From NCBI GenBank assembly GCA_964387845.1, contig CAYLXA010000009.1, forward strand, positions 32,001 to 96,000: a stretch of 64,000 nucleotides of DNA, read 5' to 3'. Below the pieces are notes generated by a model. That model did no database searches and was not told the origin of the DNA. It saw only the letters and a program-made list of their open reading frames with translations. Origin of the DNA: an uncultured bacterium. Lineage in GTDB: Bacteria > Omnitrophota > Omnitrophia > Omnitrophales > Abzuiibacteriaceae. Shown in pieces: positions 4,394 through 64,000 of this stretch (the first letter of the stretch is position 1; each line of letters starts with the position of its first letter). A program made the position numbers and the translations under genes.

Positions 4394-4397
4394 GCCC

Positions 4398-5429: not shown

Positions 5430-5474
5430 AGGTTTTGTAGTTTATCAGGCACTTCTCACAGAAGCAATGACGGA

Positions 5475-5750: not shown

Positions 5751-5774
5751 TTTTAAATTAGCGTTAAGGCAAAG

Positions 5775-5840
5775 TTTTAAGTGATAAGTGGTAAGTGCTA
5801 AGTTGTTCGATTAACTTATCACTTACCATTTAAACCTTAC
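5775..5840. repeat. Heptamer-based palindromic intergenic element of the GTAAGTG family.
   Basis: ttttaagtgataagtggtaagtgctaagttg / aacttatcacttaccatttaaaccttac. Confidence 0.75.
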
Positions 5841-5845
5841 GCCTT

Positions 5846-6967: not shown

Positions 6968-6977
6968 ATTTTCCAGT

Positions 6978-7057
6978 CATAAGTGGTAAGTGATAAGTTG
7001 TAAGTAGGAAAAATAACTTACCGTTTCTCACTTAGCACTTACAACTTACCACTTAAA
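6978..7057. repeat. Heptamer-based palindromic intergenic element of the GTAAGTG family.
   Basis: cataagtggtaagtgataagttgtaagtagg / aacttaccgtttctcacttagcacttacaacttaccacttaaaac. Confidence 0.75.
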
Positions 7058-7063
7058 ACTAAA

Positions 7064-7645: not shown

Positions 7646-7650
7646 AGTGT

Positions 7651-7712
7651 TAAGCGGTAAGTTGTAAGTGGTAAGAAAAAACTTATCCCTTACCACCTAT
7701 CACTTAGCACTT
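7651..7712. repeat. Heptamer-based palindromic intergenic element of the GTAAGTG family.
   Basis: taagcggtaagttgtaagtggtaag / cttatcccttaccacctatcacttagcactt. Confidence 0.75.
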
Positions 7713-7714
7713 CT

Positions 7715-8844: not shown

Positions 8845-8850
8845 GCTTGG

Positions 8851-8926
8851 TTAAGTTGTAAGTGGTAAGTGATAAGTGCTAAGCAATTTGATTAACTTAC
8901 GACTTATCACTTATCACTTACAACTG
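8851..8926. repeat. Heptamer-based palindromic intergenic element of the GTAAGTG family.
   Basis: ttaagttgtaagtggtaagtgataagtgctaag / aacttacgacttatcacttatcacttacaactgaattaa. Confidence 0.75.
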
Positions 8927-8928
8927 AA

Positions 8929-11900
8929 TTAAGCGGCCATCGACGTGCGGAGTTCGGAGCGGTACTGATTCATGATGTCGGCGGTTAAGCCGGCAAGCCC
9001 TGTCAGCAAGTCAAATTGACGGCTCGTGGGAGTAATCAAATCATCCGGACTTTGAAGAATGCCGCGCGCAAAAAGCATTTCCGCAGTACCTTTATCGCGG
9101 CGTGAGGTGCCTAATGCATAACGCAGTTCAGACCTTGTTTCGCGGAGAATTTCCATTAATCGACGGTCGTTTTCTGCAACCGGGACCGGCTTAAATCCGG
9201 CCGCAATAAGTTCTGCATTAATCTCTTCAATCACACGAAGTTCGGAACGGGTGCTTGGCCTTGCAATTAGAACATGGCTTGGTGAAAGATTTTGCTGAAG
9301 TACGGCAATCAGCGGCCCATATTCAAACAATCCGCTCAAGGCAATCAAAGCGGTCTGCGCTTCTGCGCCATTCACCGATGACGCTTTCAACCCTAAAACT
9401 TCTGAAACTGCTGCACGCAATTCGGAGCGAGGCGCTGCGATACGGCTTAAGCTTTTTTGAACAACCGCACTTAAACGTTTTAAAGACTTTTCCTGATCCG
9501 CCACCGGATTAAGCCGCGCGAAATCATCAACGCCTCTTAATTCCGATCTGAGCTCTTCAGATTCATCGTCAGCAGCAGATTGACTGACCGCATCGTCTAA
9601 ACTCTTTTGGTTACCCTCGTTAATAGCTTCTCGAGCTTCTTGCGGATTAATATCAAACATTTCCGAAATCTCTTGGACGTCTGCAGGATCCTCGGCATCA
9701 TATGCTTTGGACCGGACTCGAACGTGCTCCGCTGCTAATTCAACCGAGGTCAATCCATGCGAATCGCCGTCTTCTAAATCCATCCGCAACTCGGACCGCG
9801 CTTCGGCAGCTTTTTGCGGCTGATCAGCCAATAGAAGTGCTTTTAAATCATTGTAAATAGAGGCGGATTGCCGAAAATCGAAGAAGTCTTTGCCATTACT
9901 ATCCTTGCTCTTTGAAAACTTATATCGAATGGCATGATGAATCTCAAGAATAATCCCGAAGACGGTTTGAAAGAGGTCAAATGCTTCGCCCTGGATTCCC
10001 GATTGCCGAAAATCAGTTGCAAACGCCGACGCTATACTATATGTGTCAACTCCCAACTTCTTTATTTTGTCCATTTCTATATCCTGCCGGAAAGCTGCGT
10101 TCAGATAATCGCGTGCAAGCTTAAAATATTCGTTCTTAAAGCCCTGAAACCGCTCAAGCCAATCTGTTTGCTCAGGATCTATTTTTGAAAGCGCAAGTTC
10201 GGTGGTTCTTTCCGCGTGATCAACAAGCTGAGTAATCAACGCTCGCATATCTTCAAGACTATAGGCCGTTGCGGTCTTTGAAGCTTTACTGTGTCCGGCA
10301 TTAGTATCTTGCGTTCCGGATTTGATTCGCCTAATTATCACAGCCGCCGCCAATCCAAGAACTCCGATAACACCGACGGCTACCTGCCCAAAACTAATCT
10401 CCGAAAAATAACCCTCAAAAGTTTCTTTCAAGCCGACGGACCGGACAATTGGCCCAAAAGCAAAAACCAGGACGCCGGCGGCAACAAACGCGCTTATCGC
10501 GAGCCACTTCGTCCGGCCGGTTAAGCTTTCAAGCGAATCCGTCCTTAATTCCGAGCGGCTACCGTAGTCGGGCCGGCTGTAAAATTGGCTCCCTTTTTGA
10601 TGGACCGTAAATCCAATCGAATGAATGAGTTGAACCGCTTCGCGCCGGTTAATGGCATATCCGAGATTGCTTGCTAATAAAATCACCTTATCAACAGTGA
10701 CTCGGCGAATATTTTTCAATTCATCTAAAACCTTTATGAAAAGATCATTCGAATTTTTCTGAGCACGTAATTCGGAGCGCGATAATTGCTCAACCGTTTC
10801 CCGAACAAATTGCGGAACTTCGCCGGTTGCACGCAACAGTTCTTTTCCAACTAACGTCCGGCGATGAAAATCAGATATCGGACGGTCACTGATGGCATCA
10901 GTAAGAGCTTTAAAAAGGTTCGGATCATTTTGTTTAAGAACCTCTAAAGATTGCGCATCAACTTGCTGACGCAATTCCGAACGGTTCAGAACGGCATTGA
11001 GGACATCACGTAAATCGGAAACGGCTTGGTCGAGATTTTCGAAGTCAATTTCTTGATCAGACCCGGCGATTTTCAATTTGGAGCCGTTCACTTCACCCTT
11101 CAGTCCGATATGCCTCAAGTTGGCTTCGACCGTCCGAGCCGTCACTTCGGGATTAAAACTCGCCACTGGCGCCAAAAATTCTTTGTCACCCGCTCTCACC
11201 TGAATTTTCCACTCCGAACCGAAGCCGGAAATCAATTCTACTTGCAATTCCGAACGTACGGATTCATTGGCCGCTTTGACAATACCCGTAAATTCATCGG
11301 CTTTGAGACTGGCGCCGCCGATTAAGCCACCGTCAATGTTCTTCTTTGCGACCAGCGAAGCCGCATTCTTTGGATTCATACTGCCGCCGTATTGAATACG
11401 CAATTTGGAAGCAACATCTTCGCCGTAAATGGAGAGAACTAGAGCGCGAATATAACGCTGGACCTCATCAGCCTGTTCGGGTGTTGCGGTTTTCCCAGTT
11501 CCGATGGCCCACACCGGCTCATAGGCAATTACGACATTCGCCATTTGTTCGGCCGTTACATCTTTCAAACCTTCGAGGATTTGTTTTTCAATCACGCCAA
11601 ATGTTTTGAACGCTTCACGCTCTTCCAGTAATTCACCAATCGCCAAAATCGGCTTTAAACCATTTTTGAGCGCGATTTTGACTTTGTCGTTGACGACCGG
11701 ATCAGACTCAGTCAGCCGATGATCAGCCGCTTTCTTTAAATTTCCGTGACGCCTTTCTGAGTGGCCGATAATGACATATTGAACACCCAAATCTTTTAAC
11801 TGAGCATAGGATATCTGGCTCGTTTGAGCGCCCGGTTCTTCAGCAGACAGATCTTGAGCACCCAACGTAAGCTGCTTGCTACCCGGATAGATTGTGGTTT

Positions 11901-14900
11901 CTCTTAATCTTTTTATTTCTCTGACAACTTCATCAATATGAACAAAAGAAGGTGCGATAATAATTTCCGGGTCATTTTCCAATTGAGTATTTCCGAGGCT
12001 TACGACAATTTGCTCTGTCAAAACTTGAGCACTTATTTTATCGTTCACTGCCATCTTCCAATTGCCGCCGATGATTGGGGTGCGCTTCGCATTTTCCGCC
12101 CGCGCAAGCGCTTCGGAATCGATTTTAAGTTTTTCAATTGCTCTCTGCGCCTGAAATGAATTCCAATCATTCATGATTTCATCAAACTTTTGACGAAGCT
12201 TGGGATGCAGCCGCTCATACCGAGTCTTACCGTGAACAACCCCCTTCTCTTCAAACAGCCATTGCCGCCAACGGATTGCTTCTTTGGTAAACCACTCTAA
12301 ATCCTGCTCGCTGACATCAAGCAACTTAGCTAGCGCCTCGTCCGTCATGTCAAGGCCTTCTCTACGAAACCCGTCAACTGTCGGCGTAAAACCAATTAGC
12401 ATGGGCCATTTCTTAGCGTTTTTGGTTCCTCTCGGATCTTTTACGCGCTCTGATGACCATATATCACGCCGCACATTTTCCCTGAAACCGGGAAATTCCG
12501 GTTTTCCATCCGGGCCTTCTTTGAAAACGTTGTGAGTGATAAAAATAACCTCTTTCGGCTGATTCTCGAAAAATTCAAACATGTTGTTTGTGTGCGCAAT
12601 TTCGTCTCCCGCTTCAAAATCACCGTTCGCAAATGGACTGGGGGTCAATGCGCCCACCGTTCCGGCTGCCGCAGCCGTCGCGGCGCTGATCATCATCAAA
12701 CCATACAGAATACCAGTGGCAGTATCCGGTGCCTGTCTTAAGAAAAATCCGCCTTTCGGAAGTTTAACGCCCCATTCAACCACTTGGAAAGAAACCGGCT
12801 TGCCCCAATTTTCCGGCAAGAAATCTTTTGCATTATCCGGAATGGATACCGTAAAACGGCTGTTCGGATGTGCCCATTGAAGCGCAGCCGCATAAATTTT
12901 CATCAGTGATTCAGCAACGTCTTCATTGATATGCGGAGAAAGTTTAATCAACCGCGATTTAGCTTCTTTTTTGTTGATTTTTTCGAGATCAAACTCCTCC
13001 AAAATCGCACGAATCGTATCGGATTTGTCCGAAAGCCAGAATTTTTCCAAATCCTTCACAGGAACAGCCTTGAGCGCAATGTCAATCCGTTTCGGGTCGG
13101 TCGATGACATTCCGTTCCAAACATACCAGTTTGGCTGGCCGATCGGTTTTGGCTTTCCGTCCTCTTCCAATCCTTCCCACCATTGTTCGACAACCGTGTC
13201 TGTTTCGGGGTCTAATCGGTAAGCACCGTTCGTAAAAATCGTTTTGCTGCCGGGCCCAATCATTTTCATGATGCGCGGATTGCTCTTATTGTTGGTCCCG
13301 ACCAAAACGCCAAATGAACCCAGTTCGGGACTTTCTGCTTTTGGCCATCCATCTTCCGAAATCAACTCAGCCATATTAAGATCTCTAATAGGCGTAATAT
13401 AAGTTGGGTCTATGGGCTGCCCGCCTTCATCAAACAATTTGATGCCTGCCTGACCTTGAATCCAAGCAATGTCATCTCCATGAAATTCCACTTCCCAGTC
13501 TTCTTTCAAAGCATCGGGCACTTCAACAAACGCAGAATTGGTTTTTCCGACCGCGCTCGGGTAAGCGCCGAGAATACCGATCCGCTCGCCGGTCTTTTTG
13601 TTTATTAACACTTTGATCAGCATGTGTTCGGCAAGAAAATTCTTTTTCCGGAGCGCATCGTAGTTGGCTTGGCGAAGCGCTTCAAACTTCTTGCCGAAAA
13701 GCGCATTGCCGCCATATTCGGAGCCATAAGACAAAATTAACGCTTCATGCGCAACAAGAGCAAAGTAGCGGTTATCAATGGGATTTTCCTTTCGTTCGCG
13801 CTCAGCAGCTAACTTGTCCAGATCACCCGTCACATGAATGCCGCGCTCAAAAACGTATCCTTCTTTGATGGCATCCAGTGCTAATTTTCCGATTGCGATT
13901 TTTCCTACTCGAGCCATTTTAATCATGTTGAGAGCAACGTAACGGCTATCGGTCAGCTGAATGCCGACCCGCCTTACTCCAGAATCAGGATCCGACATCA
14001 AGTATGCAATTTTGTACATCTTCTTGCCCTTGTAGCCATCAGCCTTCATTAAATCTAAAATGGTTTGTTTCTTGCCCTCAGGGCCATCCGCCATCGCCCA
14101 ATTATTGGAAGGGCCTTTGTCGTTGGAATCGTTGGTAAGCACCATCGTGCGGTTCGCTGTTCTCGCAACATCCTTCGGATGGGAGTGAGCGACATATCTT
14201 CCGTCATTTGTTTTAAAATAGCGTCGGGATGTTTTCCCCCACTCAACTTGTTCTTCCTGGAGGCGATCTTCATCGGAAACGTCAACCCATTCCGATTCTC
14301 CCGCCCCGACAAGCTCGTGGGCATAATCAACAAATTCATGAACCGACTGAGGAACTCCTTTGAAATCATCCTCGCTTAAGTTAATCCGCAGTTCGCTGCG
14401 AGAAAGTGAAGGAATTTCACGGTCGCGGTACAAATCCAAAACATCAGACGGTTCCAATCCAAATCTTGTTATAAGAGCTGAGGCAAGCGTTCCGGGATTC
14501 GCTTGGAGATGTTCTCTCGCTTCATTAAGCGCTCTTTCGCGCATTTCAGCTTCATATGCAGCAGTATCGCTTCCGCGGCCTCTTTGCGCATGACGAACGG
14601 CTCTGAGTTCGCTGCGAGTCGTTAGAAGCTGATCGATAACTTCAATGGCGCTTGCAACCGTTTGAATTTTTTCAGCTTCTTCATCTGGAATTCTAATATC
14701 AAAGTCACCCTCTAGTGACACAACGAATTCGACAGTTTTCAACGAATCCCAATTCTCTATTAAATCTTCAAATCGAACATCATCATCAATGGGAATATCT
14801 GATTCCAAACCGCTGATCTCTCTAAGTCGCCAAATAACTTGCCGCTGAATGTCACCGATGCTGAATATGCTTGCGCCGGCTGTGTCACCAGTGCGAAGTT

Positions 14901-17900
14901 CGCTCTGTTTAGCAGCGAGAGCATTGCTCGGCTCTGTGCTTTTTGCCCGCCGAAGAGAGAGACCATGCCTGTCAAGCGCGGCTGTGATTTCTTGAATATT
15001 CTCGACTGAAAAACGGGCTTGCCTGAGATCAGTCGCACTCATTTGGGTTAAGACGTTGACAGTCGTAACACCCTTAGTTCTTAACAGGCCAGCGAGTTTG
15101 ACGGGCAAGTTTAATTGTGAAAAACGGATGCTTTGCGCAGCATTACCCCGAAGCTCCGAACGCGCAGCGGCTTTGATTGCTTCTTCCAAGAGCGCAATGT
15201 GCTCATTGATAACGATAAACTCTGTGACTTGGAAATCCTGATCCTCCGGACTGAGCGTGGCTAAATTTTCATGCAGATAACTGACCAATTCGGCAAACTT
15301 TGATCTCATAACTTGAAGCATTTCCTTCAGCTCTTCGGCGGAAAACCGGCTCAAATACTCTTTGTAAACGGCTTTCCGGTCAGAGGATTCAACCTGCGAT
15401 TGCAACTGCGCAATCCGCATCTCTACGTTCCGGGCCAGATCTGCTGCAAAAGATTCCGGAGAAATCGGCTTATTTTCAAAAAGCACGGCTTCCATAAGCC
15501 CGCTCGGGCCTTCTTTTGTTTCCACCGTTCTTGCGTCGGCTACGACCTGATTAGAGTCCGCATGCTCAAAACCTCTCAACTGGATACCGTTCCGGAGACT
15601 GACGCCGATCCATCCTCCACGGCCGCCGAAACGCTCGCCCATTCCATGATCCGTAAAAATAATGCGGGAATCAATTTGAAAACCACCGATCACGCCACGT
15701 TTCTCGGCGTTTAGTTTGGTCGCAAATTCATGAAACGGCAGATGCCCGGTAAACAAACGGTTAAACCCGTTGACTTCGGCGAGTCTTCGCGCACCAAACT
15801 TATTAATAGCAGCCGCCACATTCGGCACCTTGATCTCGGTCGTGTTGTCGGCATACCAGCTGTTTACCAAATTGAGCGCTTCATAAATTTCAGAAAGCGA
15901 CGGGTTTGAGCGTATGTCGTGCGCAACAATGTCCAAGCCTTGCCAAACCGATGGATGTTCTTTGCTGCCTTTTCCTCGATATTCAATTTTCTTAGACGGA
16001 TCATCCTTGCTTCTGTAGGTGAAATAAAATTCACCTGTGCTCATATCCACCGGCAAAAACGCGTGCATATAAATATTTTGATAAGCATCGCGCTGATACA
16101 AATGAAACTGCGCTTTGAAGAAATCAGCTATCCGGTCAAGCGTGTGATTTTCCAGATAATTGGCCGAAGTCACTTTTGCATCGGCCGGCAAGTTTTCGTT
16201 CAACTCCTTGATAACCGCTGTTCCCCAATCCTTATGAAAGACCCAGTCTTTCGCCCACCACTCAGGTGACGTATAATTCTGCCGGTTAACGGCTTCGAAA
16301 ACTTTTGCCCAGTCTTTGCCTTGATCCACAAACGATTGGAGGTCTTTCTTGAGTTCGGGAAGAATATCTTCGGACATCATCCGGATCGCTTCACGCCACG
16401 CCTGATTGGACGGCAGTTCGGCATCAAAACCCTGTGCGGCTTCAATCGATGCATAAGCCTTTCTAAATCCCTCCAGCAAATCTTCCCACCAAGGAATCGA
16501 AACGGTGCCGACCGCGCGGACTCCGGTGTAAATATCCACCAAATACCAGCCTCGGAACTGATTCCACAACCGGATCTGCTCGGCATCACCGTTCAAACTG
16601 GCAGAAACTTGCTTGTAAAGACCGCTGCCTTCAACGCGTTTCTTGCGTTTTTCATCAGTCCATGCGCCGTTTACTTTAATTTCAAGCGTATCCCAAAATT
16701 CTTTTTGCCGCTTTTCATGGAATGCGGTAAATTCGGCGAGATGTTCCGCCCACCAAGTTTTGGCTTTGGCTTCGGGAATTTCTTTCCGGTAGCGATCCGC
16801 GATTGCTTCTGCTTCCCGGTCACCGTAAAAATTATAGCCTTCGTAAAACGGCAAATGAAAACCCTGCAAATTCATAAACATCCACAAATCATGATTGCCC
16901 GGTATAAAATCAGACAGTCCCGCATCAATTAATTCTGCGGAACGATGAAATACTTTCACGCCGTAAGGCCCGCGATCCATCAAGTCGCCTAAATTATGAA
17001 GGTAAATCTTGCGCCGCAAATCATCAAACGTAACGCCATGAACGGCCAGCTGGTCTTGAAGTGCTTTACTCGGATTCAATTTAAAATCTGCCGGCAGTTG
17101 ACCGGGCAAAACTTGGTTGATTGCATCAACGATCAGTGCGTCAAAACGATCGATCGTTCCGTGCTGGTCCGAAATAACGGCTGCAATGGGAAAATCTCTA
17201 GACTCAGAGGGTTTTTCAAGCTGCGAAAGCAAATCAAATAGCAATTTCAGCTCTTCCTTTGACGGCATATAGGTAGTCGAAATGCTCTTTTCTCTCAGTT
17301 CAGAGCGGTTCTTACGATTGCTATTGTGATTGAGCTCAAAAATACGGTTAATCTGACCTGCAACAGTTGCAAGGTCACCCCGCACAGGCCATTCAACTGT
17401 GACTAAGGTATCCCGCTCAACAATCGGTATCACGGAACTTCTGTGATCGCCTTTGGCTAATTGCACGCCACGAGTTTGAAGAAGAGTTGCTAAAGCGTGA
17501 GCGCTGCCTGCAAACTGAGGTTCCGCATGACCTGGAAAATAAACATCCAATCCTTTCTTCTTTAAATTTGGGATCACATGAACAGGCGCTTGATTAGAAT
17601 TGACAAGGCCTGAAACTGGTAATTGGGCCGGTTGGCCAAGAGGATCGCTTGAATCGGCAACAGGAAAAGGACTATTCTTTGTCTTGGTTCTCTTTCTAAG
17701 AGCTTTTTTGCGGGTACTTGCTTCAGTTACCGAACCGCTGGCATGAGCAATCACTTCTCCGTCTTTATTATCGCGCTTCACTTCATAAAAAAGTACATTT
17801 GTGCCGCCTTTCCGCTCAACTTTAAAAATTTGTAAGCGTATTTTCTTTCCGCGAGGGCCCACAAAGAAAACTGAATTGCGGGCGCGATTTAAGGCATAAT

Positions 17901-18741
17901 CTGAAATTGCTGCTTTAATTTCATCTATATACTGCTTCATATCGGCGGTTTCGGTGATGAAACTCGAAAATTCAAATTTCTGGATCTGCTGAGCCCGGAG
18001 TTCAGAGCGCAGCAGTTCGAGTGCGGTTTCGCGGGCTTCGGAATCTTGAGGGAACGCAAAGATGGTGTCCACCAAAACCAATTTTCCGTTTCGGATATAT
18101 TCCATAAAAGAATCGATTTCAGGCCCCGGGAAAACTCCTTTGTGTTCACCCAGCATGTGAGAAATGTGATGATTTTGCGAAACGCTCTTTAAACCATTGC
18201 CGACATGGAAATGCAGGTGAGGCACTGTGATTTCCGTTCCACCGTTTACTCTCACTTTCAATTCTTTGCCCTGCCTAAAAAAGACCGTTAATTTTTTACT
18301 GTCATCTGAACTTTCTATCGATGACACGCCGCCATACAAGAGAGCATCTTTTAATTGGGCAGACAAATTATCCGGCCATGCAATGGTTTGGAAATCAAGG
18401 GATCCCTCGCCCAAAAGGCCTCTGTGTTCTGTGGTTTGCGCTACAATTAATAGAAGCTTGTCCGCCAATTGATCCGCAAGCTGTTGGCTGAGCGGTTTAT
18501 TCGGATCCAAAAACAACACTTGCCTGAGTTCGGAACGGAAAGAAGGATATTGCGCTGCAAATTGACGGAGTTCGGAAGCGGCTTTGCTCCAGACAGCGGC
18601 TAAATTGCGGACCGTAGTGGTGCCGGGCTTCGGCGCGAAAATAGTTTGCGGAATGTCCGAATATGCCATCGAACTCGAGAATGTAAACGCAAACAATGTT
18701 GCGCTTGCCGTCATTTTGATCAGTTTATGTTTTAGATTCAT
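8929..18741 (-). CDS. Giant polyprotein-like gene of about 3270 aa. It has a signal-peptide-like leader, a metallophosphoesterase module, a complete GTP-type PEP carboxykinase, a complete triosephosphate isomerase, a transmembrane segment and further modules. Twelve exact RSELR motifs. The start is moved to the ATG at 18739..18741.
   Basis: Stop-free frame of 9.8 kb. True N-terminus MNLKHKLIKMTASATLFAFTFSSSMAYSDIP. The track's 5' extension (MVSFKLLTTYHLSLITK) is a translation of the repeat element. Confidence 0.8.
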   Translation of the reverse strand: MNLKHKLIKMTASATLFAFTFSSSMAYSDIPQTIFAPKPGTTTVRNLAAVWSKAASELRQFAAQYPSFRSELRQVLFLDPNKPLSQQLADQLADKLLLIVAQTTEHRGLLGEGSLDFQTIAWPDNLSAQLKDALLYGGVSSIESSDDSKKLTVFFRQGKELKVRVNGGTEITVPHLHFHVGNGLKSVSQNHHISHMLGEHKGVFPGPEIDSFMEYIRNGKLVLVDTIFAFPQDSEARETALELLRSELRAQQIQKFEFSSFITETADMKQYIDEIKAAISDYALNRARNSVFFVGPRGKKIRLQIFKVERKGGTNVLFYEVKRDNKDGEVIAHASGSVTEASTRKKALRKRTKTKNSPFPVADSSDPLGQPAQLPVSGLVNSNQAPVHVIPNLKKKGLDVYFPGHAEPQFAGSAHALATLLQTRGVQLAKGDHRSSVIPIVERDTLVTVEWPVRGDLATVAGQINRIFELNHNSNRKNRSELREKSISTTYMPSKEELKLLFDLLSQLEKPSESRDFPIAAVISDQHGTIDRFDALIVDAINQVLPGQLPADFKLNPSKALQDQLAVHGVTFDDLRRKIYLHNLGDLMDRGPYGVKVFHRSAELIDAGLSDFIPGNHDLWMFMNLQGFHLPFYEGYNFYGDREAEAIADRYRKEIPEAKAKTWWAEHLAEFTAFHEKRQKEFWDTLEIKVNGAWTDEKRKKRVEGSGLYKQVSASLNGDAEQIRLWNQFRGWYLVDIYTGVRAVGTVSIPWWEDLLEGFRKAYASIEAAQGFDAELPSNQAWREAIRMMSEDILPELKKDLQSFVDQGKDWAKVFEAVNRQNYTSPEWWAKDWVFHKDWGTAVIKELNENLPADAKVTSANYLENHTLDRIADFFKAQFHLYQRDAYQNIYMHAFLPVDMSTGEFYFTYRSKDDPSKKIEYRGKGSKEHPSVWQGLDIVAHDIRSNPSLSEIYEALNLVNSWYADNTTEIKVPNVAAAINKFGARRLAEVNGFNRLFTGHLPFHEFATKLNAEKRGVIGGFQIDSRIIFTDHGMGERFGGRGGWIGVSLRNGIQLRGFEHADSNQVVADARTVETKEGPSGLMEAVLFENKPISPESFAADLARNVEMRIAQLQSQVESSDRKAVYKEYLSRFSAEELKEMLQVMRSKFAELVSYLHENLATLSPEDQDFQVTEFIVINEHIALLEEAIKAAARSELRGNAAQSIRFSQLNLPVKLAGLLRTKGVTTVNVLTQMSATDLRQARFSVENIQEITAALDRHGLSLRRAKSTEPSNALAAKQSELRTGDTAGASIFSIGDIQRQVIWRLREISGLESDIPIDDDVRFEDLIENWDSLKTVEFVVSLEGDFDIRIPDEEAEKIQTVASAIEVIDQLLTTRSELRAVRHAQRGRGSDTAAYEAEMRERALNEAREHLQANPGTLASALITRFGLEPSDVLDLYRDREIPSLSRSELRINLSEDDFKGVPQSVHEFVDYAHELVGAGESEWVDVSDEDRLQEEQVEWGKTSRRYFKTNDGRYVAHSHPKDVARTANRTMVLTNDSNDKGPSNNWAMADGPEGKKQTILDLMKADGYKGKKMYKIAYLMSDPDSGVRRVGIQLTDSRYVALNMIKMARVGKIAIGKLALDAIKEGYVFERGIHVTGDLDKLAAERERKENPIDNRYFALVAHEALILSYGSEYGGNALFGKKFEALRQANYDALRKKNFLAEHMLIKVLINKKTGERIGILGAYPSAVGKTNSAFVEVPDALKEDWEVEFHGDDIAWIQGQAGIKLFDEGGQPIDPTYITPIRDLNMAELISEDGWPKAESPELGSFGVLVGTNNKSNPRIMKMIGPGSKTIFTNGAYRLDPETDTVVEQWWEGLEEDGKPKPIGQPNWYVWNGMSSTDPKRIDIALKAVPVKDLEKFWLSDKSDTIRAILEEFDLEKINKKEAKSRLIKLSPHINEDVAESLMKIYAAALQWAHPNSRFTVSIPDNAKDFLPENWGKPVSFQVVEWGVKLPKGGFFLRQAPDTATGILYGLMMISAATAAAAGTVGALTPSPFANGDFEAGDEIAHTNNMFEFFENQPKEVIFITHNVFKEGPDGKPEFPGFRENVRRDIWSSERVKDPRGTKNAKKWPMLIGFTPTVDGFRREGLDMTDEALAKLLDVSEQDLEWFTKEAIRWRQWLFEEKGVVHGKTRYERLHPKLRQKFDEIMNDWNSFQAQRAIEKLKIDSEALARAENAKRTPIIGGNWKMAVNDKISAQVLTEQIVVSLGNTQLENDPEIIIAPSFVHIDEVVREIKRLRETTIYPGSKQLTLGAQDLSAEEPGAQTSQISYAQLKDLGVQYVIIGHSERRHGNLKKAADHRLTESDPVVNDKVKIALKNGLKPILAIGELLEEREAFKTFGVIEKQILEGLKDVTAEQMANVVIAYEPVWAIGTGKTATPEQADEVQRYIRALVLSIYGEDVASKLRIQYGGSMNPKNAASLVAKKNIDGGLIGGASLKADEFTGIVKAANESVRSELQVELISGFGSEWKIQVRAGDKEFLAPVASFNPEVTARTVEANLRHIGLKGEVNGSKLKIAGSDQEIDFENLDQAVSDLRDVLNAVLNRSELRQQVDAQSLEVLKQNDPNLFKALTDAISDRPISDFHRRTLVGKELLRATGEVPQFVRETVEQLSRSELRAQKNSNDLFIKVLDELKNIRRVTVDKVILLASNLGYAINRREAVQLIHSIGFTVHQKGSQFYSRPDYGSRSELRTDSLESLTGRTKWLAISAFVAAGVLVFAFGPIVRSVGLKETFEGYFSEISFGQVAVGVIGVLGLAAAVIIRRIKSGTQDTNAGHSKASKTATAYSLEDMRALITQLVDHAERTTELALSKIDPEQTDWLERFQGFKNEYFKLARDYLNAAFRQDIEMDKIKKLGVDTYSIASAFATDFRQSGIQGEAFDLFQTVFGIILEIHHAIRYKFSKSKDSNGKDFFDFRQSASIYNDLKALLLADQPQKAAEARSELRMDLEDGDSHGLTSVELAAEHVRVRSKAYDAEDPADVQEISEMFDINPQEAREAINEGNQKSLDDAVSQSAADDESEELRSELRGVDDFARLNPVADQEKSLKRLSAVVQKSLSRIAAPRSELRAAVSEVLGLKASSVNGAEAQTALIALSGLFEYGPLIAVLQQNLSPSHVLIARPSTRSELRVIEEINAELIAAGFKPVPVAENDRRLMEILRETRSELRYALGTSRRDKGTAEMLFARGILQSPDDLITPTSRQFDLLTGLAGLTADIMNQYRSELRTSMAA
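11290..12090 (-). other. Complete triosephosphate isomerase module.
   Basis: IIGGNWKM, IIGHSERR, AYEPVWAIGTGKTATP and YGGSMNP. It follows the PEPCK module directly. Confidence 0.8.
12190..14370 (-). other. Complete GTP-dependent phosphoenolpyruvate carboxykinase module.
   Basis: NNWAMADG, GKKMYKIAYLMSDPDSGVRRVGIQLTDSRYV, SYGSEYGGNALFGKKFEALR, YPSAVGKTN and HGDDIAW. Preceded by RSELR at about 14380..14400. Coordinates are approximate. Confidence 0.75.
15750..17200 (-). other. Calcineurin-like metallophosphoesterase module inside the 3270-aa gene.
   Basis: ISDQHG, GDLMDRG and GNHD motifs. Coordinates are approximate. Confidence 0.55.
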
Positions 18742-18747
18742 GTTTTT

Positions 18748-18810
18748 AGTGATAAGTGATAAGTGGTAAGTGGTAAGCAACTTAAAACTTACCACTTACA
18801 ACTTACGACT
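18748..18810. repeat. Heptamer-based palindromic intergenic element of the GTAAGTG family, between the 5718-aa and 3270-aa genes.
   Basis: tagtgataagtgataagtggtaagtggtaag / acttaccacttacaacttacgact. Confidence 0.75.
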
Positions 18811-18816
18811 GAAAAA

Positions 18817-21800
18817 TTATGCGGCGCGTCCCAATTCGATAACGTTACGCAGTTCCGATCTTAAAGATTCCGCAATTTGAGTAATACCAAACGCATTAAA
18901 CAGCGCCTTGACTTCGCTCCGGCCGACAAACACAACCTGGCTTGCATAACGCTTCAGCATTTCGGCTGACGTTGCGTCACTTTCTTTTGAAGCAATAATC
19001 CTGAAATTCTTGGCACCCAATTTCCGAAGTTCTGAGCGCGCCTGGACAAAATCGCGCACAATCACAAAACGGTCTGAGTTTACATCCGCAACCGCGGCCC
19101 GGATGGCAGTTTCGCTGGCCGGATCAAGCGCAATGAGCGCCGTCGGATCGGCCGAATTTTCTAAAATAATCGGAAGTGCCCATAAGACATCCTCGTTAAT
19201 CAAAAGGCCTTCTGTCAGAATATTACCGACTGCCGTTTCTACCCCGGCGCCATCCTGCGCTTGCATAAATTGACGAATAGCCGCTTGAGGTTCTTCGCTT
19301 CTGGCACGGGTAAACTGCCTCCGGCCTGCTTCGACTTTCGACCTGATTCGTGTAGTAACGGCCGCAGGAATCATGGAAGACGTATCCAACGAGCCAAACG
19401 CAGAGCTCGGAACCGCAGTCAATCGCAATTCGGAACGGGTTTCTAGTTTCTGGTTTTTAGTTTCTGGTTTAAACTTGAAACTAGAGACTAGAGACTCGAA
19501 ACTTTCCTTACGAAGTTCGGAACGCTCCCACTTACCCGTCTTTTCAAGCGTGTGCTGCGCAATTGCGTGTTTAGTTTTAATCAAAGACCCCAGATCAAGT
19601 TCAAATTCCGAGGATGTTAAAGTATATGTACCCGAAAATCTGGATTCCAATTGCTGGATGCGTTCCACACCTTCCAGAACCAAAACTTTTGTCATGTTCA
19701 ACTCATGATCAGACTCAAGCCCGAGATCGATACGATGTTGGGTCCTGTTCACAACCGAAACGAGCGCAAAAAGTTCCGAGACCATTTTCCCGAATGCCAT
19801 AAAATAGCTTTGAACTTCTTTCTTATCTTTGATGGCTTTTGCCCCGCCAAACCGTTCTATAAGTTCTTCGCCGGCTTTTTCAACCAAAGCTGATACGTTC
19901 CAAACAATTTCCCAATCACGCTGAAGCGGGCTTTGGTCTGGAATATCCCAGCCTTGCAGCAATTGACGGTCATTCTTCCACACTTCGGATTCCAAATATT
20001 TGAGTACTGCCGATGCAATAACTTGCGAATAAAGGATTTCGTTGGCGCCTTCAAAAATCGTCATGACACGGGCATCCGCGTTAGTACGGGCGACTTGTTC
20101 TTCAACCATAAACCCCGCACCGCCGCGTTTTTGAACCGCTTCACTTGTCAAACGGTTCAGAACTTCAGAGCCCCACGCCTTCGCGGCCGCAGCTTCAAGC
20201 CCTGGTTCCGAAACACCGCCGTCAAAAAGCCCGGCAAGTGAATAGCTAATAGACTCAAGCGCATAGGTGTAAGCTTCCATGTCTGCAAGCGTTTCCTGAA
20301 CAGCGCCCCAATTGGCGAGCTGCGTACCGAACTGTATGCGATCGAGCGACCAATTTAAAGTTCTTTCAAATGAACGGAGCGCACCGCCCCAGCTTCCGGC
20401 TGCGACCGCCGTACGGCCGTGATTGAGAATCGACATGCCGATTTTATTGCCGTCGCCCAATTGGCCGAGCAGATTTTCCTTCGGAACCCGCGCATTCTCA
20501 AAATACACATCGACAGTCGAAGAACCATGAAGGCCTGTTTTGTGGTAGTCGTTGCTGATGGAAATGCCTGCCGCTTTGCGTGCTTCCGCATCCTTCGGGA
20601 ATTCAACGATAAAAACACTCTTCTCGTTTTCACCCGTCATCGCAAATACGGTCATAACATCCATGAAACGGCCGTTTGTGATAAACGCTTTTTCGCCGGT
20701 AATTTCATAATATTCTTCACCGGTCGTTTCATCTTTTTTGAGCACCGCTTTGGTTTTTAAAACCGATTCGCGGTTTAAGCTGTCTGAACCATGCGCGGTT
20801 TCAGTCAACGCGTAAGCGCCGATCCATTCGCCGGTCGCGAGTTTCGGCAGGTATTTCCGCTTTTGCTCTTCCGTTCCGAATTTCACAATCGGAAGCGTTC
20901 CGACACCGCCATGAACACGAACGAGAGAACCCACCGACGGATTGGCATACCACGCCCACATATCTGCCAGTGTTTTCATAATCTTTTTAAAGTTACCCAA
21001 CCCGTATTCTTCGGGAACTGACATCCCCAGCAAGCCCATCTCTCCTGCCTGCTGCAAAATGCCGCCCTCATCCTCAACTTTGACAGCGCCGCTATCAATC
21101 TTTTCGCTTTCCGGAACTACCGCGCTCTTGAAGAAATTGGCGATGGCTTCATTCATTGCATTGATTTCTTCATGACCGGCTAAATCTTCCGGAAATTGGA
21201 GCGTGCCTTCGGCCACATTGGCGCGGCCATATAATAGGAAGTCGCCGGATTTGGGCGTACTTTCGGCGAACGGTACCAGTGCTTTGTCATTCTGAGGCGC
21301 AGCCGAAGAATCTACGGTCGCAGATCCTTCGCTTCGCTCAGGATGACCGGCTTTTGCCTTATCCAGCACTTCTTTTTCCATCGCGTCCATCATTTTCAGA
21401 GTATTGGCGCGAATCAAAAGAGCGTTCTTTCCATTTCTTGCTTCATAGGTAACGGGAACGATCGGCAGTTTTTCACGCGTGACTTTGATTTTGTCAGCCG
21501 CGGGAGCAATAGCGCGGATGTCAATCACATCGCCCGGACGGATGTCATGATTAAAAGTAGCCAGATCGGTCACATTCAGTAATAAATGACCGGGAACGGC
21601 TTCCGCAGACATCCTGGCCGCTACTTTAATGGCTGCAAGAATATTGACAAGTCTCGGATCATTTGATTCGGCAATCACGCGTACACCGTTTAAATAATCT
21701 TCCGTAACCGTTACGGGCAGAAGGCCGCTTGGATTTTCATTTGGCGATGACGTATCTTGAATGCGCGGGCTTGCAGAATCCGTAAAATCAAATATCTGCT

Positions 21801-24800
21801 TCGGAACCGAGTGCGTAACACCTTCGGACCATGCTTTCGCCTGATCGATTTGCGATTGGGTGGGTTTTGAAGTATCAAACGGCTCATCGGCCGGCCTTGG
21901 TTTCATATTGGCAACGATTTCTGCCACCACTTTCCCGGCTTGATTAACAACCTGAATCTTAAGCTTCGCGACACCATTTTCAGAAATACTCATGACTTCA
22001 ATGACCGGTGTCACCACGTCGTCAAACTTCACGGGCGCTGAAAATTTCGCGCTTTCTACCGCACTACCCTCATCTCCGATGCCGATAAATTCATACCCGG
22101 GAAGCTCTTCCTGGGTACGGGCCAGCATTTTAGAAACCGTCAGAAGGCCATGTGCAACCAGAGCGCCAAATTTGGACGCTTCCGCGTATTCTTTGAGTAA
22201 GTGGAAACGGTTGCGGTCGCCTTCCATCGCGAAGAGCTTGACCATCCACTCGCGCATGATGAGCGCGTTTCCGAGAATCTTTTGGCCGGCGAATACGGAA
22301 AGTGCGTTGTCTTCCGTGCGCCCGCCCGGACGAAGCGCTAAGAGAAGTCTTGCGCGCGCCTTTGTATAACGTTCTTTTTCGGCATCGCTCAAAATACCAG
22401 GGATTTTCATGGCGCGTTCCATTTGGATAAACGGAATGCGCGCGGATGCAGCATCTACGATTTCAAGCGCGCCGGTCACAGGATCTTTGAATCCGACAGC
22501 GCCAAGGCCGCGGTCTTGATCGGCAACGGCGTAATCTTCGATAATCGCAAGGTCGCGCTCAGTTGAATTTTTCCATGCTTTTGCGTACGCTTTGCCTGCA
22601 TCACTCTTGAGCCATTCTTTCTTGGCCGCTTTGCCTTCATCCGTTTTCAAATCAAATACGGGCATCGCACCGACCGTGTCAGCGCGTTGCGGACTTAACA
22701 AGCGGTTAATTTCATCAACTTGATTGGCTTTTGCAAGTTTTCCCGCGAAACCCCAATTGGCGACACGTTCCGCTTCATGCGTTACATTTTCATCACTGGA
22801 ATAACCATCGATCGCGTCAATTTTTGAATATGCCGTGAGAGCAATAAAAAGTGAGTGATAATAATTGTAACCTTTCGTTGTCGGATCATCTTCGGCCTCA
22901 TGAACCATATTGCCGTCAACATCGAAAATCGCGGCCGTTACGCGGCGGCTTGCACGCATGATCGACTGCGTTTCCGATTCCTCAAACGCTTTTGCTTCTT
23001 GTTCGATTGCTTTAGGGTCAGAAATGCTGGGTACAATTTCAAACCCTCCCGTGAGATATCTATAATCATGTTCAAACTCGGATAGAAAACCGTCTAGCTC
23101 TCTGATTTCTTTTGCGCTTTGTGTGTTTTGATACACAATACCCGTAACAGAGGATGCGAGTAATGGGAAAATATCCTTAAGTCTTTCGATTGGATTTGAC
23201 TTTGCAGTTTCAATCCAAATAATCTTTTCATGCTCGCCCGGGAGCATCAATCCTTTAAGTTTTTGTATAGAATCCTTGAAAGAACCGTCTTGCCACCACG
23301 AAGCCGGTGCGGAATCTAAATTGATTTTAATGATATCCACCTCTGAATTCATTGCTATATTCAGAGCTTCATAGTCATTTACGTCAACACTTACGATTGA
23401 TCGTGCCAATGACACATCGCGCGGAACGAAAACTTCGGGCGGAAGAATAGGTTTGCTGTCGGCTGCCATTTTGTCGAGATCGGCCAGTTTTATTTCGGGT
23501 AATTTTTTGTAATCGTAATCCGGATGTTTGCGGATGACAGGCGGAAATTGGCCGAGGAATGGCTCCATTCCCTTCAAGTGGTTCGGATGAACGCTCCACT
23601 TGCGGTTCATGCCGATCTTGATAAATTTTTCTGTGTCGGCTGTGGTCGGCTCAACTTCAAGTTTCACGGTAATGCCGGTACCCGCCACTTTTCCGGTTTT
23701 CTTTCCGGCTTCAACGATATCGAGAAGCGCTGAGCGCATATACGGAAATTGCTCATGCTGCACTTCATTTTTCCCGCCGGTTGCGGCTGTGTAATCGACA
23801 ACGCCAAGCTGTGCTTCTTCTACTTCCGGAGCAATTGATAAAATCCGTTCAGCGTTCAAAGTTCCACCGGGAAGTTCTGTGAGCACAAATACTTTATGAG
23901 AACCGACGGGGCGATTGACCCATTTTTGTTCGGCTTGAATCGCACGCAGATTGGCAACACCGATGCGGACATCCTGCGGGCCGAATACTTTCGGCATATA
24001 AATACCGTCTATCAAATGGCCGATGGCGCGAAAGACGATGGAATAATCGCCCGCGGACCACTTGGTGCGCAGATTGTTCGGACGGAACAGAATCATCTGG
24101 TCTTTATGGAAACGCGCTTCTTCTTTTAATTGGAAGCGTCTATTGCGCGAATGAATCTCATCCCACTCGTCTTCTGACAACATCCGGTAATCCGAATAAT
24201 CGGTGTCATCCGGCAATTCAATAAGATATTTGTCGATCGGATCTTTTTCGTCGTTGGCCTGCAAAGCATTCTTTTTCAAGAAATCAACTTGCTCTTGTGT
24301 GAGGATTTCGCCCTTGAACAACCGGATCAATTGAATAATGACTTCGCGCGCAAGTTCCTTGCGGATGGTCGCTACGGCATCTTCCAAATCTAATAGAAGA
24401 ATCGGAGCCTTCATGCCCGCGCGTGCGGCAAGCAGCATGAATTTCCAGTTATCACCGGGAAACACATTTTGGACTTCGCGCGGCATGTACTCCCACGCAA
24501 GCCGTGCGGCAACTTCATCAGCCGTCACATCGGGCTTCACGACTTTCCAATTTTCGTAGCGGTAATTGAGGTCTTTCACGGCATGAGCTTCATCATTGCC
24601 AAACGCGGTCAGCAATGCCTGCTTCACTTCCGCATTCGTCACTTGATCGAGCGAAATTTCCCGTAATTCGGAACGGACAAACTCGGGGCTCTTCAATCTG
24701 TTGCGGTCAATTTTTTGAAGGTCGCCGGTGCGCGGAAGTGAGGAAACAATCACAACCCGCTTGGGTGCTTTGTAATGGGCAAGTGACTCTTTTGCGGATT

Positions 24801-63952: not shown

Positions 63953-64000
63953 CAAACTTAATTGGGGCAGCGAATCCCAAACCCAAACGGGAGCGTAAAC

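Follow-up and report, generated by a model that had tools for sequence, protein, structure and literature searches.

A shared leader and C-terminal cap enclose variable enzyme cargo in the giant genes of an Omnitrophota bacterium

Do giant genes that carry different enzymes share a genuine common scaffold, and what could such a scaffold serve? The question is raised by the window analyzed here, a stretch of 64,000 nucleotides from an Omnitrophota bacterium that holds six giant genes (G0-G5), every one on the minus strand. A preliminary description, made from the sequence alone, had presented them as a paralogous family with a signal-peptide-like leader and a small C-terminal domain around variable enzyme cargo. 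The features of the window are as follows.

1..4210, minus strand: giant G0; the window has the N-terminal part of a gene called as 6161 aa
8929..18741, minus strand: giant G1, 3270 aa; leader, 15 RSELR, Metallophos-like and ACP-like regions, PEPCK and TIM cargo, divergent cap
8932..9429, minus strand: G1 cap region, from RSELR at residue 3105 to the end (...RSELRTSMAA), with four more RSELR inside
18658..18741, minus strand: G1 leader, MNLKHKLIKMTASATLFAFTFSSSMAYS
18817..35973, minus strand: giant G2, 5718 aa; leader, 8 RSELR, cap
18820..19437, minus strand: G2 cap, from RSELR at residue 5513 to ...RSELRNVIELGRAA
35878..35973, minus strand: G2 leader, MKMKNSPAKSVQKIISAVLVLTFSFTNTIAYS
36245..49771, minus strand: giant G3, 4508 aa, identical to P0019; leader, 8 RSELR, cap
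36248..36886, minus strand: G3 cap, from RSELR at residue 4296 to ...NSMTRAA
49691..49771, minus strand: G3 leader, MKQNYFLKLISALLVVSFSFTSSIAYS
49773..51347, minus strand: protein S, about 522 aa; signal peptide and hydrolase-like domain of the TIKI/ChaN/EreA/TraB fold, no RSELR
51386..59173, minus strand: giant G4, 2595 aa, identical to P0020; leader, 12 RSELR, cap
51389..52015, minus strand: G4 cap, from RSELR at residue 2387 to ...RSELRTLRSA
59093..59173, minus strand: G4 leader, MSGKPFLKIISLTLLITFTFTSTVGYT
59462..64000, minus strand: giant G5, of which the window covers the C-terminal 1511 aa; PGM-like cargo, cap
59465..60082, minus strand: G5 cap, from RSELR 206 residues before the end to ...QIVLSRA

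Positions 18600-18741 (minus strand) encode the first 47 residues of G1, MNLKHKLIKMTASATLFAFTFSSSMAYSDIPQT..., and translation begins with the ATG at 18741, whereas the ORF finder had given the GTG at 18795. The leader variant quoted earlier for the truncated gene G0 is present; this leader is canonical if the gene starts at the TTG at 4210 (...KAISVFVLIAFTLNSTLAYA), and it is followed by an S-like domain that stops at the first RSELR (residue 521, numbered from 4150). The full-length G5 protein (P0024, 4770 aa) likewise has a canonical leader, MKFNRFLTKSLALTLVLAFSFTNSVAYS. The cargo of G2 comprises two 3-hydroxyacyl-CoA dehydrogenases, an MCM-like mutase, acyl-CoA synthetase, HpcH lyase, MaoC hydratase, and acyl-CoA dehydrogenase, and that of G3 an AprA-like methyltransferase, MeaB, methylmalonyl-CoA mutase with a B12 domain, a methyltransferase, biotin carboxylase, and carboxyltransferase. 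G4 carries Glu/Leu/Phe/Val-dehydrogenase-like cargo and several TM-like segments about 20 aa downstream of RSELR.

Leader and cap at the ends of the giants

All four N-termini said to align were found (starts at 18741 in G1, 35973 in G2, 49771 in G3, and 59173 in G4), and they align without internal gaps; the pairs G1-G3, G2-G3, and G3-G4 were detected by BLAST (E 1e-5 to 6e-7). The leader is near-invariant, 26-31 residues long, and is followed by a short N-module and then by the first RSELR, which lies at residues 69, 159, 54, and 57 in G1-G4, in keeping with the 60-150 or so described. A profile built from the four N-termini gave 23 matches at E<=1e-3 among 1.84 billion representative proteins, all of them beginning at target residue 1-20 and accompanied by R[SA]ELR; most were giants, 12 of the 23 being full-length proteins of 956-5710 aa, and ordinary signal peptides in this set were not matched at a similar score. 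With conserved positions and a profile specific for the N-terminus and for giants, the similarity is not mere hydrophobic bias.

Across 26 leaders, again aligned without internal gaps, one Tyr is invariant and a Lys or Arg always stands 18 residues ahead of it. The n-region is positively charged, as in Sec signals (net charge +1 to +4, mean +2.5), and the hydrophobic core counts exactly 11 residues from the last basic residue to the c-region in 26/26 (mean Kyte-Doolittle 2.25), which is within the Sec range of about 7-15 residues and short for a stable TM anchor. The c-region is polar (F-T-[NS]-[ST]-[IV]-[AG]-Y-S), with a small residue (A/G/S/T) at position -3 in all 26 leaders, S/T/G at position -1 in 23 (Ser in 21; Pro in the other three), and D/E at position +1 in 21. 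The leader, first called signal-peptide-like, has the full anatomy and is a predicted signal peptide of the Sec/signal peptidase I type. Its codons differ among the window giants and the DNA upstream is unrelated, which rules out recent gene conversion; signal peptides are not conserved among orthologues of protein S, which points to a special constraint on the leader of the giants.

The cap module spans about 130-200 residues and usually ends in ...AA or ...SA. The C-termini of G2 and G4 are 30% identical over 220 aa (E 5e-17) and those of G3 and G5 25% identical over 141 aa; an iterated cap HMM recovers the module in 14 family members, at 8-34 residues from the C-terminus, and also matches two ORFs outside its training set (loci L040 and L043). 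In an AF2 model, the last 141 aa of the G4 cap form five beta-alpha units of a Rossmann-like alpha/beta fold. The cap matched no Pfam family, and the C-terminal region of G1, cap included, gave no cap-specific match in NCBIfam. The shared C-terminal region of the preliminary description is real but larger than the 45 residues or so proposed there; the segment quoted for G3 was out of register by one beta-alpha unit, and the ending expected near RSELRxxx(A)A occurs, as RSELRx(3-9)A, in only three of the five window C-termini. The idea that leader and cap are more conserved than the internal modules fails for the cap, which has 26% identity between orthologues against 43-53% for the cargo.

This low conservation, pairwise scores of 12-31 bits between window caps and those of relatives, the looseness of the first MAFFT alignments of the cap, and an exact 600-nt repeat in the related locus L002 that might mislead assemblers could suggest that the shared ends are unreal, the product of a bias towards hydrophobic or low-complexity sequence, of recent duplication within the locus, or of faulty assembly. 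We find this scarcely credible. It is already contradicted by the exhaustive leader-profile search with its high specificity for position and for giants, and the differing leader codons and unrelated upstream DNA also speak against it. The same architecture was recovered, moreover, from independent JGI, NCBI, ENA, and Logan assemblies, and the L002 arrangement recurs with identical gene coordinates in L003, from a second JGI sample.

In related genomes, leader and cap are found on giants with unrelated cargo. The scaffold of leader and cap around variable cargo is thus confirmed and reaches well past the window, and the architecture belongs to a clade within Omnitrophota. The notion of a paralogous family stands for the shared ends and not for the whole length, homology being limited to the terminal modules and some cargo, for example the two methylmalonyl-CoA mutase modules.

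The RSELR delimiter and module exchange

Within the giants, the pentapeptide RSELR (consensus R-[SA]-E-L-R) marks the borders of modules. It occurs 50 times in the window against 0.04 expected, only in the reading frames of the giants and with every synonymous codon in use. None of 48 copies lies within a Pfam envelope, though envelopes span 36% of residues; several stand 9-21 aa off a domain edge, and around 154 non-redundant sites no flanking position carries more than 0.33 bit. RSELR is thus a short recurring peptide between folded domains with free flanks, as would be expected in a polyprotein. The modules between delimiters are protein-sized and mostly cofactor-dependent enzymes of cytoplasmic type; some open with a membrane helix, and TM-like helices start about 20 aa after RSELR, much as they would near the start of a separate membrane protein.

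Where different giants share homologous blocks, the edges lie 0-16 aa from RSELR, and two L002 genes have in common an identical stretch of exactly 600 nt (200 aa) that opens at the first Arg of RSELR and runs as far as the stop codon. The modules behave as independent proteins elsewhere, another property expected of a polyprotein: G3 is represented by two separate leader-bearing genes in the relative L006, and the UDPGP module, internal in G5, stands at the N-terminus in L002. These comparisons show that leader, cargo, and cap modules have been swapped between genes exactly at the delimiter. In giants of other Omnitrophota lineages that are fused to an S-like domain, other delimiters recur, namely GARL[AS] (GARLA/GARLS) 13 times, GARMA seven times, and ARFTE four times, with unrelated flanks; many loci with S-fused giants have no over-represented motif within the visible 10 kb. 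The S domains are most alike (47% identity) in the two lineages with GAR-type motifs, a covariation of S domain and motif type that shared ancestry would give likewise.

RSELR also occurs within the modeled cap fold, at helix N-termini that follow beta-strands, where cutting would destroy the cap, and some enzymes, such as PEPCK and TIM, are unseparated between two RSELR. These observations count against cleavage and would suit giants that stay whole as multi-enzyme scaffolds, either tethered to the membrane or exposed at the surface (metabolons or a 'coat'). RSELR would then be a motif for linking or docking, perhaps one that starts a helix or binds a common partner (the cap, for instance), and leader and cap would just fix the ends. 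Fused PEPCK-TIM and other enzymes are what channelling would predict, TM-like segments are present, and Omnitrophota giants have been treated as membrane or surface proteins in published work. We nevertheless consider intact scaffolds possible but rather unlikely. If RSELR were purely a linker, there would be no need for an exact pentapeptide at about 150 sites with information-free flanks, nor would it give way to unrelated exact motifs in other lineages; orthologous modules work equally as fused parts or separate genes, and the TM helices past the motif look as if separate proteins began there. Sec export of B12, biotin, or phosphopantetheine enzymes is, in addition, hard to square with established knowledge.

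Protein S and the possible fate of the giant chains

If the giants are cut, protein S is the best candidate, a putative one, for the processing enzyme. Its 3' end adjoins the G3 start codon, and the listed ORFs overlap. The core alpha/beta fold of S agrees with the TIKI/TraB/ChaN/EreA superfamily, which includes the endopeptidase RRSP as well as esterases and a haem-binding protein. S also gives weak Pfam matches (Cofac_haem_bdg at 18.9 bits, below the family cutoff of 27.7, and DUF5694). Invariant in 15 homologues of the S family are H72 (DAH), E100 (VEGG), and H465, the last in a G-G-F-H motif (G462-G463-F464-H465); these residues may correspond to the catalytic His, Glu, and GxxH motifs of the superfamily. 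S differs from the superfamily in a helical insertion of about 300 residues and in having no sequence match in the PDB; a comparison with NCBIfam gave no match either, and the activity of S is putative. Homologues occur at 304 places in species-representative genomes, and the best 80 of these 304 loci are mostly labelled Omnitrophota, with many Planctomycetia or unclassified. S is fused to a giant as its N-terminal module in 29/74 loci and stands directly upstream of a leader-bearing gene in 5/5 loci of the RSELR clade.

Our best reading, to which we give about an even chance (roughly 0.5), is that the giants are polyprotein precursors, 'operons in one ORF', for which we infer cleavage with S as the best candidate for cutting. 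The leader would guide the nascent chain to the membrane and the Sec machinery, RSELR would mark the processing sites, and processing would be performed by the TIKI/ChaN/EreA-fold S, which is encoded amid the giants and is fused to the front of G0 and of many other Omnitrophota giants. The cap may be a common end module, not catalytic cargo, on which biogenesis depends in cis, be it for docking, a completion check, or sorting. A wider and more tentative proposal is that much of the clade's central carbon and acyl-CoA metabolism is written into polyproteins, each with a leader module of its own kind at the start and a cap module at the end. A co-evolving leader protease of TIKI/ChaN fold would cut them at the pentapeptide of the lineage (RSELR here; GARLA, GARMA, or ARFTE elsewhere), and new genes would be born by shuffling at the delimiter. 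If true, this would be a cellular counterpart to the polyprotein expression of viruses; whole metabolic pathways look encoded in single precursors, which may be cut up.

The expected location of enzyme and substrate counts against the polyprotein reading. S has its own signal peptide, so that its domain is expected outside the cytoplasm, whereas enzymes using ATP, GTP, NAD, CoA, B12, biotin, or phosphopantetheine are expected, from what is known of Sec export, to need the cytoplasm; the cofactor-dependent cargo also argues against export of the whole chain. Cofactors of another cell would be used if the giants were exported effector carriers of predatory or parasitic Omnitrophota, comparable to MARTX (multifunctional autoprocessing toxins with inter-module processing sites), with modules freed at RSELR in or on prey. 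The well-formed Sec signal peptide of the leader, the MARTX-like combination of conserved ends, variable cargo, and inter-module sites, and the predatory or host-dependent lifestyles proposed for Omnitrophota would agree with such carriers. They are improbable in our view, because the enzymes carried (TIM, PEPCK, enolase, PGK, PGM, FBA, carboxylases, mutases) belong to housekeeping central metabolism and are not toxins, because Pfam and NCBIfam scans found no cysteine protease domain, RTX repeats, or type I, III, or VI secretion signals, and because the cap fold is a generic, Rossmann-like one.

Comparison with known systems

Read as polyproteins, the giants resemble viral leader-protease polyproteins and Kex2/furin-cut prepro-polyproteins (yeast alpha-factor) in having several proteins in one ORF, parted by a short lineage-specific recognition peptide with free flanks. 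Further parallels are the hydrolase module of G0, first in the chain and stopping at the first site, and the signal peptide and pro-region ahead of the first site. In contrast to both, the giants are bacterial (cellular), serve central metabolism, and would be cut by a candidate, S, outside the classical viral or subtilisin-like protease families, their cleavage being presumed.

With MARTX the giants share conserved terminal scaffolds, shuffled cargo, and repertoires that differ between strains via module exchange, but they have an N-terminal Sec leader and metabolic enzymes in place of toxins. Peptidase_C80 and glycine-rich RTX repeats were absent in Pfam scans of all window giants, in which a type I secretion signal was not found either. 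The term cassette-like fits the exchange exactly at RSELR, while the suggested likeness to polymorphic toxins is purely architectural. A system of the Rhs or CDI type was rejected, the variable part being internal and metabolic and the C-terminus the conserved part; Pfam scans found no toxin or immunity content in the window giants, and neither toxin domains nor small immunity-like ORFs were seen in the window.

The gingipain and HagA polyproteins of Porphyromonas gingivalis are cargo of Type IX secretion, the C-terminal domain of which is an Ig-like beta-sandwich of about 80 aa. Such cargo likewise combines an N-terminal Sec signal and a conserved C-terminal domain with varied contents, and the internal processing of gingipains and HagA at Arg/Lys sites into several products may be likened to the RSELR giants. 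The window cap, modeled as five Rossmann-like beta-alpha units, the cytoplasmic-type cargo, and the phylum are different, and no domain of the TIGR04183 or TIGR04131 type was found in the caps (Pfam) or in the proteins scanned against NCBIfam.

Family-specific signal peptides are represented by YSIRK-G/S, the autotransporter ESPR, and KxYKxGKxW. The giants' leader is comparable in its conserved sequence and spacing and in being confined to one class of large proteins, which implies that generic Sec recognition is supplemented by a dedicated step of targeting or processing. Its sequence, K-x-I-S-x2-L-x3-F-[ST]-F-T-[NS]-[ST]-x-[AG]-Y-S-D, is unrelated to these, the phylum differs, and the giants have no cell-wall sorting signal.

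Among published Omnitrophota giants, bioRxiv 10.64898/2026.06.07.730766 describes a 'multi-enzyme metabolic cluster' class, whose multi-enzyme content it places on the periplasmic or outer side from signal peptides and TM helices, and bioRxiv 10.1101/2023.11.21.568195 describes Archaeovorins/dockerin-type giants. The window giants share with them the phylum, very long ORFs tiled by unrelated enzyme Pfams (PGM, methyltransferases, and others), N-terminal signal peptides, and TM helices, and differ in size (1-6 kaa compared with 10-147 kaa, the 2026 preprint focusing on at least 10 kaa). They fall within class 1 of that preprint by their many Pfams with none dominant, their phylum, and their leader and TM-like segments, while being shorter than its focus set. 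For these giants too, cleavage into smaller products has been suspected, one of the preprints stating that information on cleavage points is missing, and the processing enzymes proposed are C39 or S8 peptidase domains, not TIKI/ChaN-like ones. Text searches of the preprints found no conserved family-specific leader, common C-terminal module, or delimiting motif.

Organization of the locus and its metabolic cargo

The window (G+C content of 48%) derives from a member of the Omnitrophota, as indicated by the source records and by the homologues of protein S, a candidate processing protein encoded among the giant genes. It comprises six very long genes on the minus strand (G0-G5, the outermost two cut by the window edges) and a few ordinary ones:

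1..4150/4210, minus strand: G0, N-terminal part; on the source contig the gene call has 6161 aa
4398-8743: gpsA, dnaJ, grpE and hrcA, ordinary housekeeping genes
8929..18741, minus strand: G1, 3270 aa
18817..35973, minus strand: G2, 5718 aa
36245..49771, minus strand: G3, 4508 aa
49773..51347, minus strand: S, about 522 aa
51386..59173, minus strand: G4, 2595 aa
59462..>64000, minus strand: G5, C-terminal 1511 aa of a 4770-aa protein

By the leader alignment, G1 and G3 start at ATG 18741 and ATG 49771, whereas mechanical ORF or gene calls give GTG 18795 and GTG 49786, further upstream. G0 probably starts at TTG 4210 instead of GTG 4150.

The recognizable cargo of the giants belongs to ordinary cofactor-dependent metabolism. 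G1 carries PEPCK and TIM, G2 two 3-hydroxyacyl-CoA dehydrogenases, a B12 mutase, an acyl-CoA synthetase, an HpcH lyase, a MaoC hydratase and an acyl-CoA dehydrogenase, G3 MeaB, methylmalonyl-CoA mutase with a B12 domain, biotin carboxylase and carboxyltransferase, G4 an ELFV-type dehydrogenase, and G5 phosphoglucomutase. Apparently, one pathway is collected per giant; G2 and G3 (18817-49771) together resemble a near-complete ethylmalonyl-CoA/methylmalonyl-CoA type route, with dehydrogenases, mutases accompanied by MeaB, carboxylase, synthetase, a malyl-CoA-lyase-like HpcH, MaoC hydratase and acyl-CoA dehydrogenase. Leader-bearing proteins of relatives hold enolase, PGK with PGM and, judged by eye, an apparent fructose-bisphosphate aldolase.

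The hrcA-grpE-dnaJ heat-shock cluster, together with gpsA (4398-8743), is wedged between two giants, and each of its spacers is occupied by a heptamer palindrome. These elements of about 70 nt, built of four (G/A)TAAGT(G/T) units, a loop and four ACTTA(C/T)(C/A) units, fill nearly every intergenic gap from G0 to G2 (3986-4035, 4328-4405, 5760-5845, 6974-7060, 7645-7711, 8845-8934, 18743-18815) and look like REP-like or terminator hairpins. They account for 'LLTTYHLSL' and 'FLTTYNLPL', two spurious extensions that the ORF finder added at N-termini, and a half-copy within the G0 coding region is read as ...LPLTTYDLPL.... Palindromes of a second heptamer type (ATCTGGT/ACTAGAT) lie in frame within coding sequence, at 2915-2981, 3264-3291 and 3377-3406 in G0 and at 19434-19502 in G2. 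The G2 copy is located exactly between two copies of the delimiter pentapeptide RSELR (residues 5484 and 5513, 29 residues apart) and gives the impression of a hairpin element that was inserted and has duplicated motif-coding sequence on its flanks.

Leader and cap modules

The giants form a real and specific family, defined by a leader module at the N-terminus and a cap module at the C-terminus. All four leaders quoted in the preliminary description, as well as the G0 variant, were found, with 18600-18741 corresponding to the first 47 residues of G1. The window leaders align without internal gaps, and BLAST detects pairs of them at E values of 1e-5 to 6e-7. The observation holds, its decisive test being an exhaustive profile search in which the four window N-termini were compared with 1.84 billion representative proteins (cut-off E<=1e-3). 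This yielded 23 matches, each at the extreme N-terminus of its protein and three of them the window's own G3, G4 and full-length G5; 12 are full-length proteins (956-5710 aa), the remainder being contig-truncated fragments.

Across a 26-sequence leader alignment, a tyrosine at position 26-31 is invariant and is preceded, exactly 18 residues ahead, by K/R in every case (26/26), a spacing that G0 also shows when started from TTG 4210. The n-region has a charge of +1 to +4, the hydrophobic core comprises 11 residues, and the c-region is polar (F-T-[NS]-[ST]-[IV]-[AG]-Y-S), with A/G/S/T at -3 in 26/26, Ser at -1 in 21/26 and Asp/Glu at +1 in 21/26. To judge from the sequence, this is the complete anatomy of a Sec/signal peptidase I signal peptide; a lipoprotein or Tat signal is ruled out, as there is neither a Cys lipobox nor a twin-arginine. 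Its rigidity is far above that of normal signal peptides, and the signal peptides of S orthologues, unlike the leaders of the giants, can barely be aligned despite 63-86% overall identity. Since leader codons vary among the window paralogues and the DNA upstream is unrelated, conservation acts on the peptide, and recent gene conversion as the source of the likeness is ruled out.

The shared C-terminal region, previously estimated at about 45 residues, is in fact about 130-200 aa long, and one of the three segments quoted for it was out of register by a beta-alpha unit. The C-termini of G2 and G4 share 30% identity over 220 aa (E 5e-17) and those of G3 and G5 25% over 141 aa; the four-sequence alignment is coherent, and the G1 cap is divergent, recognized by eye and at marginal scores only. 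An iterated cap HMM finds the module in 14 family members, at a distance of 8-34 residues from the C-terminus, and also matches two ORFs on which it was not trained, in the loci L040 and L043, and a window-only profile scores 12-31 bits on relatives. Comparison of the caps with Pfam, and of several family proteins and regions with NCBIfam, gave no match for the cap. The last residues of most family members are small (RAA, SAA, GAA, YAA, QSA, MSA, VSA, MNA); the claim that C-termini end near RSELR applies to three of the five window proteins (RSELRx(3-9)A) and fails for the others. Nor is the cap conserved above the cargo, as the preliminary description had thought worth testing: identity between orthologues falls from 43-53% in cargo through about 40% in the leader region to 26% in the cap.

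The specific leader and RSELR occur together only in a small clade comprising the window, L002/L008, L006, L007 and the database matches, and L043 has a variant leader. L040 belongs to another Omnitrophota lineage, and three large genes that lie next to each other there have a different leader in common (K-I-x-A-I-x-I-L-x-x-F-x-x-T-Q-x-G); the cap HMM matches one of them, and the C-termini of the other two are similar by eye. Giants of three further loci, from still other Omnitrophota lineages and with a fused S-like domain at their start, carry exact delimiter peptides of their own with unrelated flanks: GARL[AS] (GARLA/GARLS) thirteen times in L080 (9977-21544), GARMA seven times in L074 (9860-21469), and ARFTE four times in L011 (9701-19426).

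The RSELR delimiter and module exchange

Cargo modules are bounded by an exact peptide under protein-level selection. RSELR occurs 50 times in the window, against 0.04 copies expected from composition, and is confined to the reading frames of the giants. A DNA-level repeat or recombination site is ruled out, as every synonymous codon is used across the copies and the motif appears in no other frame or strand of the window. Pfam envelopes, which cover 36% of residues, contain none of 48 copies, and many copies lie 9-21 aa away from a domain edge. Among 154 non-redundant family sites (R[SA]ELR), the flanks hold at most 0.33 bit per position over eight positions on each side, the exception being the first site past the leader, with a conserved context of the type V-R-[SA]-E-L-R-x-L-[LM]-G-L-P. 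The motif is relaxed to R-x-E-[LF]-R in the leader-family protein P0033. Strongly hydrophobic TM-like segments lie about 20 aa past an RSELR in G1, G3 and G4, much as a separate membrane protein would carry them near its N-terminus. Literature searches on the motif RSELR and on polyproteins in Omnitrophota returned nothing relevant.

Modules are exchanged at RSELR. The counterpart of G3 in L006 consists of two separate leader-bearing genes: the methyltransferase and carboxylase modules of G3 correspond to one of them, and between these sits, as an insertion, the MeaB-mutase module of the gene that follows, with junctions at RSELR 1123 and RSELR 2984 of G3. L002 has UDP-glucose pyrophosphorylase as its first cargo module, whereas G5 has it as an internal one; in both proteins the homologous block begins exactly at RSELR, and it stops 8 aa beyond the next one. 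Acyl-CoA dehydrogenase and methyltransferase blocks end 4-16 aa from the motif. Furthermore, two adjacent L002 genes (UDP-glucose pyrophosphorylase with a dehydrogenase; enolase) share exactly 600 nt, or 200 aa (5372-5971 and 9293-9892); the identity starts at the first Arg codon of an RSELR and ends with the stop codon, and the sequence to either side is unrelated. This is a freshly copied cap cassette. L003, from a second JGI sample, has the same gene coordinates as L002. Because exchange blocks are bounded by RSELR, the leader with its N-terminal module and the cap are themselves delimiter-bounded cassettes, and the common scaffold and cassette-like organization proposed earlier are supported.

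Within the N-terminal half of G4, two DNA repeats (56402-56477 versus 57221-57296 and 57023-57165 versus 58385-58527, with 97% and 73% identity) and two near-identical TM-like segments (residues 217 and 671) suggest a recent duplication.

Protein S and the possible processing of the giants

A hydrolase-fold protein, S, is associated with the giants. It carries a signal peptide and has no significant family match in Pfam or NCBIfam; its profile retrieved one spurious coiled-coil match from PDB sequences and nothing else. In the AlphaFold model (pLDDT 83.6), a helical insert of about 300 residues divides an alpha/beta core, in agreement with sub-threshold Pfam matches to Cofac_haem_bdg and DUF5694, and His72, Glu100 and a G-G-F-His465 motif are shared without change by 15 homologues. 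Species-representative genomes hold homologues at 304 places; the 80 top-scoring loci mostly bear Omnitrophota labels, and many are labelled Planctomycetia or unclassified. Of 74 evaluable loci, 29 have the S domain at the head of a giant ORF, as its first module, and 43 have it stand-alone; in all RSELR-clade loci, S lies directly upstream of a leader-bearing gene. G0 itself has a leader followed by an S-like domain ending at the first RSELR (residue 521). The S domains of the two lineages with GAR-type motifs are most alike (47% identity versus <=34% to others), which may reflect co-evolution and equally fits shared ancestry. In the close relative L006, a 118-aa gene of the bAvd/23S-rRNA-IVP four-helix-bundle type (11613-11969) lies between S and the downstream giant and is absent at the matching place in the window.

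We consider it about an even chance (probability of roughly 0.5) that the giants serve as precursor polyproteins and that RSELR is where they are cut. Protein S or the S-like domain would then be the candidate processing enzyme, and the leader and cap may act in cis in biogenesis. Two caveats apply to cleavage: RSELR also lies inside the predicted cap fold, and some enzymes stay fused between RSELR sites. Beside it stands the alternative, which we regard as rather unlikely, that the giants remain intact scaffolds.

The main difficulty of the polyprotein reading is topology, as a good Sec leader and an S expected outside the cytoplasm are combined with cargo of cytoplasmic needs (ATP, GTP, NAD, CoA, B12, biotin, phosphopantetheine). 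Enzymes with such cofactors acquire them and work in the cytoplasm, and Sec would not be expected to transport them. There are two ways out: an early uncoupling of cargo from leader by the first RSELR, or a truly external location of the giants, whose function would then be very unusual. A 2026 preprint (bioRxiv 10.64898/2026.06.07.730766) concluded from topology predictions that the location is external. That the giants are exported effectors seems to us improbable.

If the polyprotein reading is correct, this would be the first systematic polyprotein expression of housekeeping metabolism in a cellular organism, accounting for functional enzymes from such long ORFs, providing an annotation rule to split giants into real products and adding a new specific pair of protease and site. 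If it is not, cofactor-dependent enzymes that bear a rigid, family-specific signal peptide constitute a topological paradox that bears on the site of metabolism in these ultra-small, possibly host-dependent bacteria.

Giants of the Omnitrophota, among them multi-enzyme proteins with signal peptides, have already been described and their cleavage suspected (bioRxiv 10.64898/2026.06.07.730766; bioRxiv 10.1101/2023.11.21.568195); one of the two reports asks about cleavage and calls the cleavage points unknown, and text searches of both found no mention of a motif or of a leader or C-terminal module common to the giants. The locus makes it testable whether such giants are cut, and where, through a grammar of leader module, delimiter-bounded cargo modules and cap module, with delimiters that differ between lineages, and a candidate processing enzyme. 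The closest architectural analogies are T9SS gingipain-type cargo, MARTX toxins, leader-protease viral polyproteins and Kex2-cut prepro-polyproteins; the defining features of the first two, tested in the window giants, are not found there, and the family is a new, well-defined variant among Omnitrophota giant proteins.
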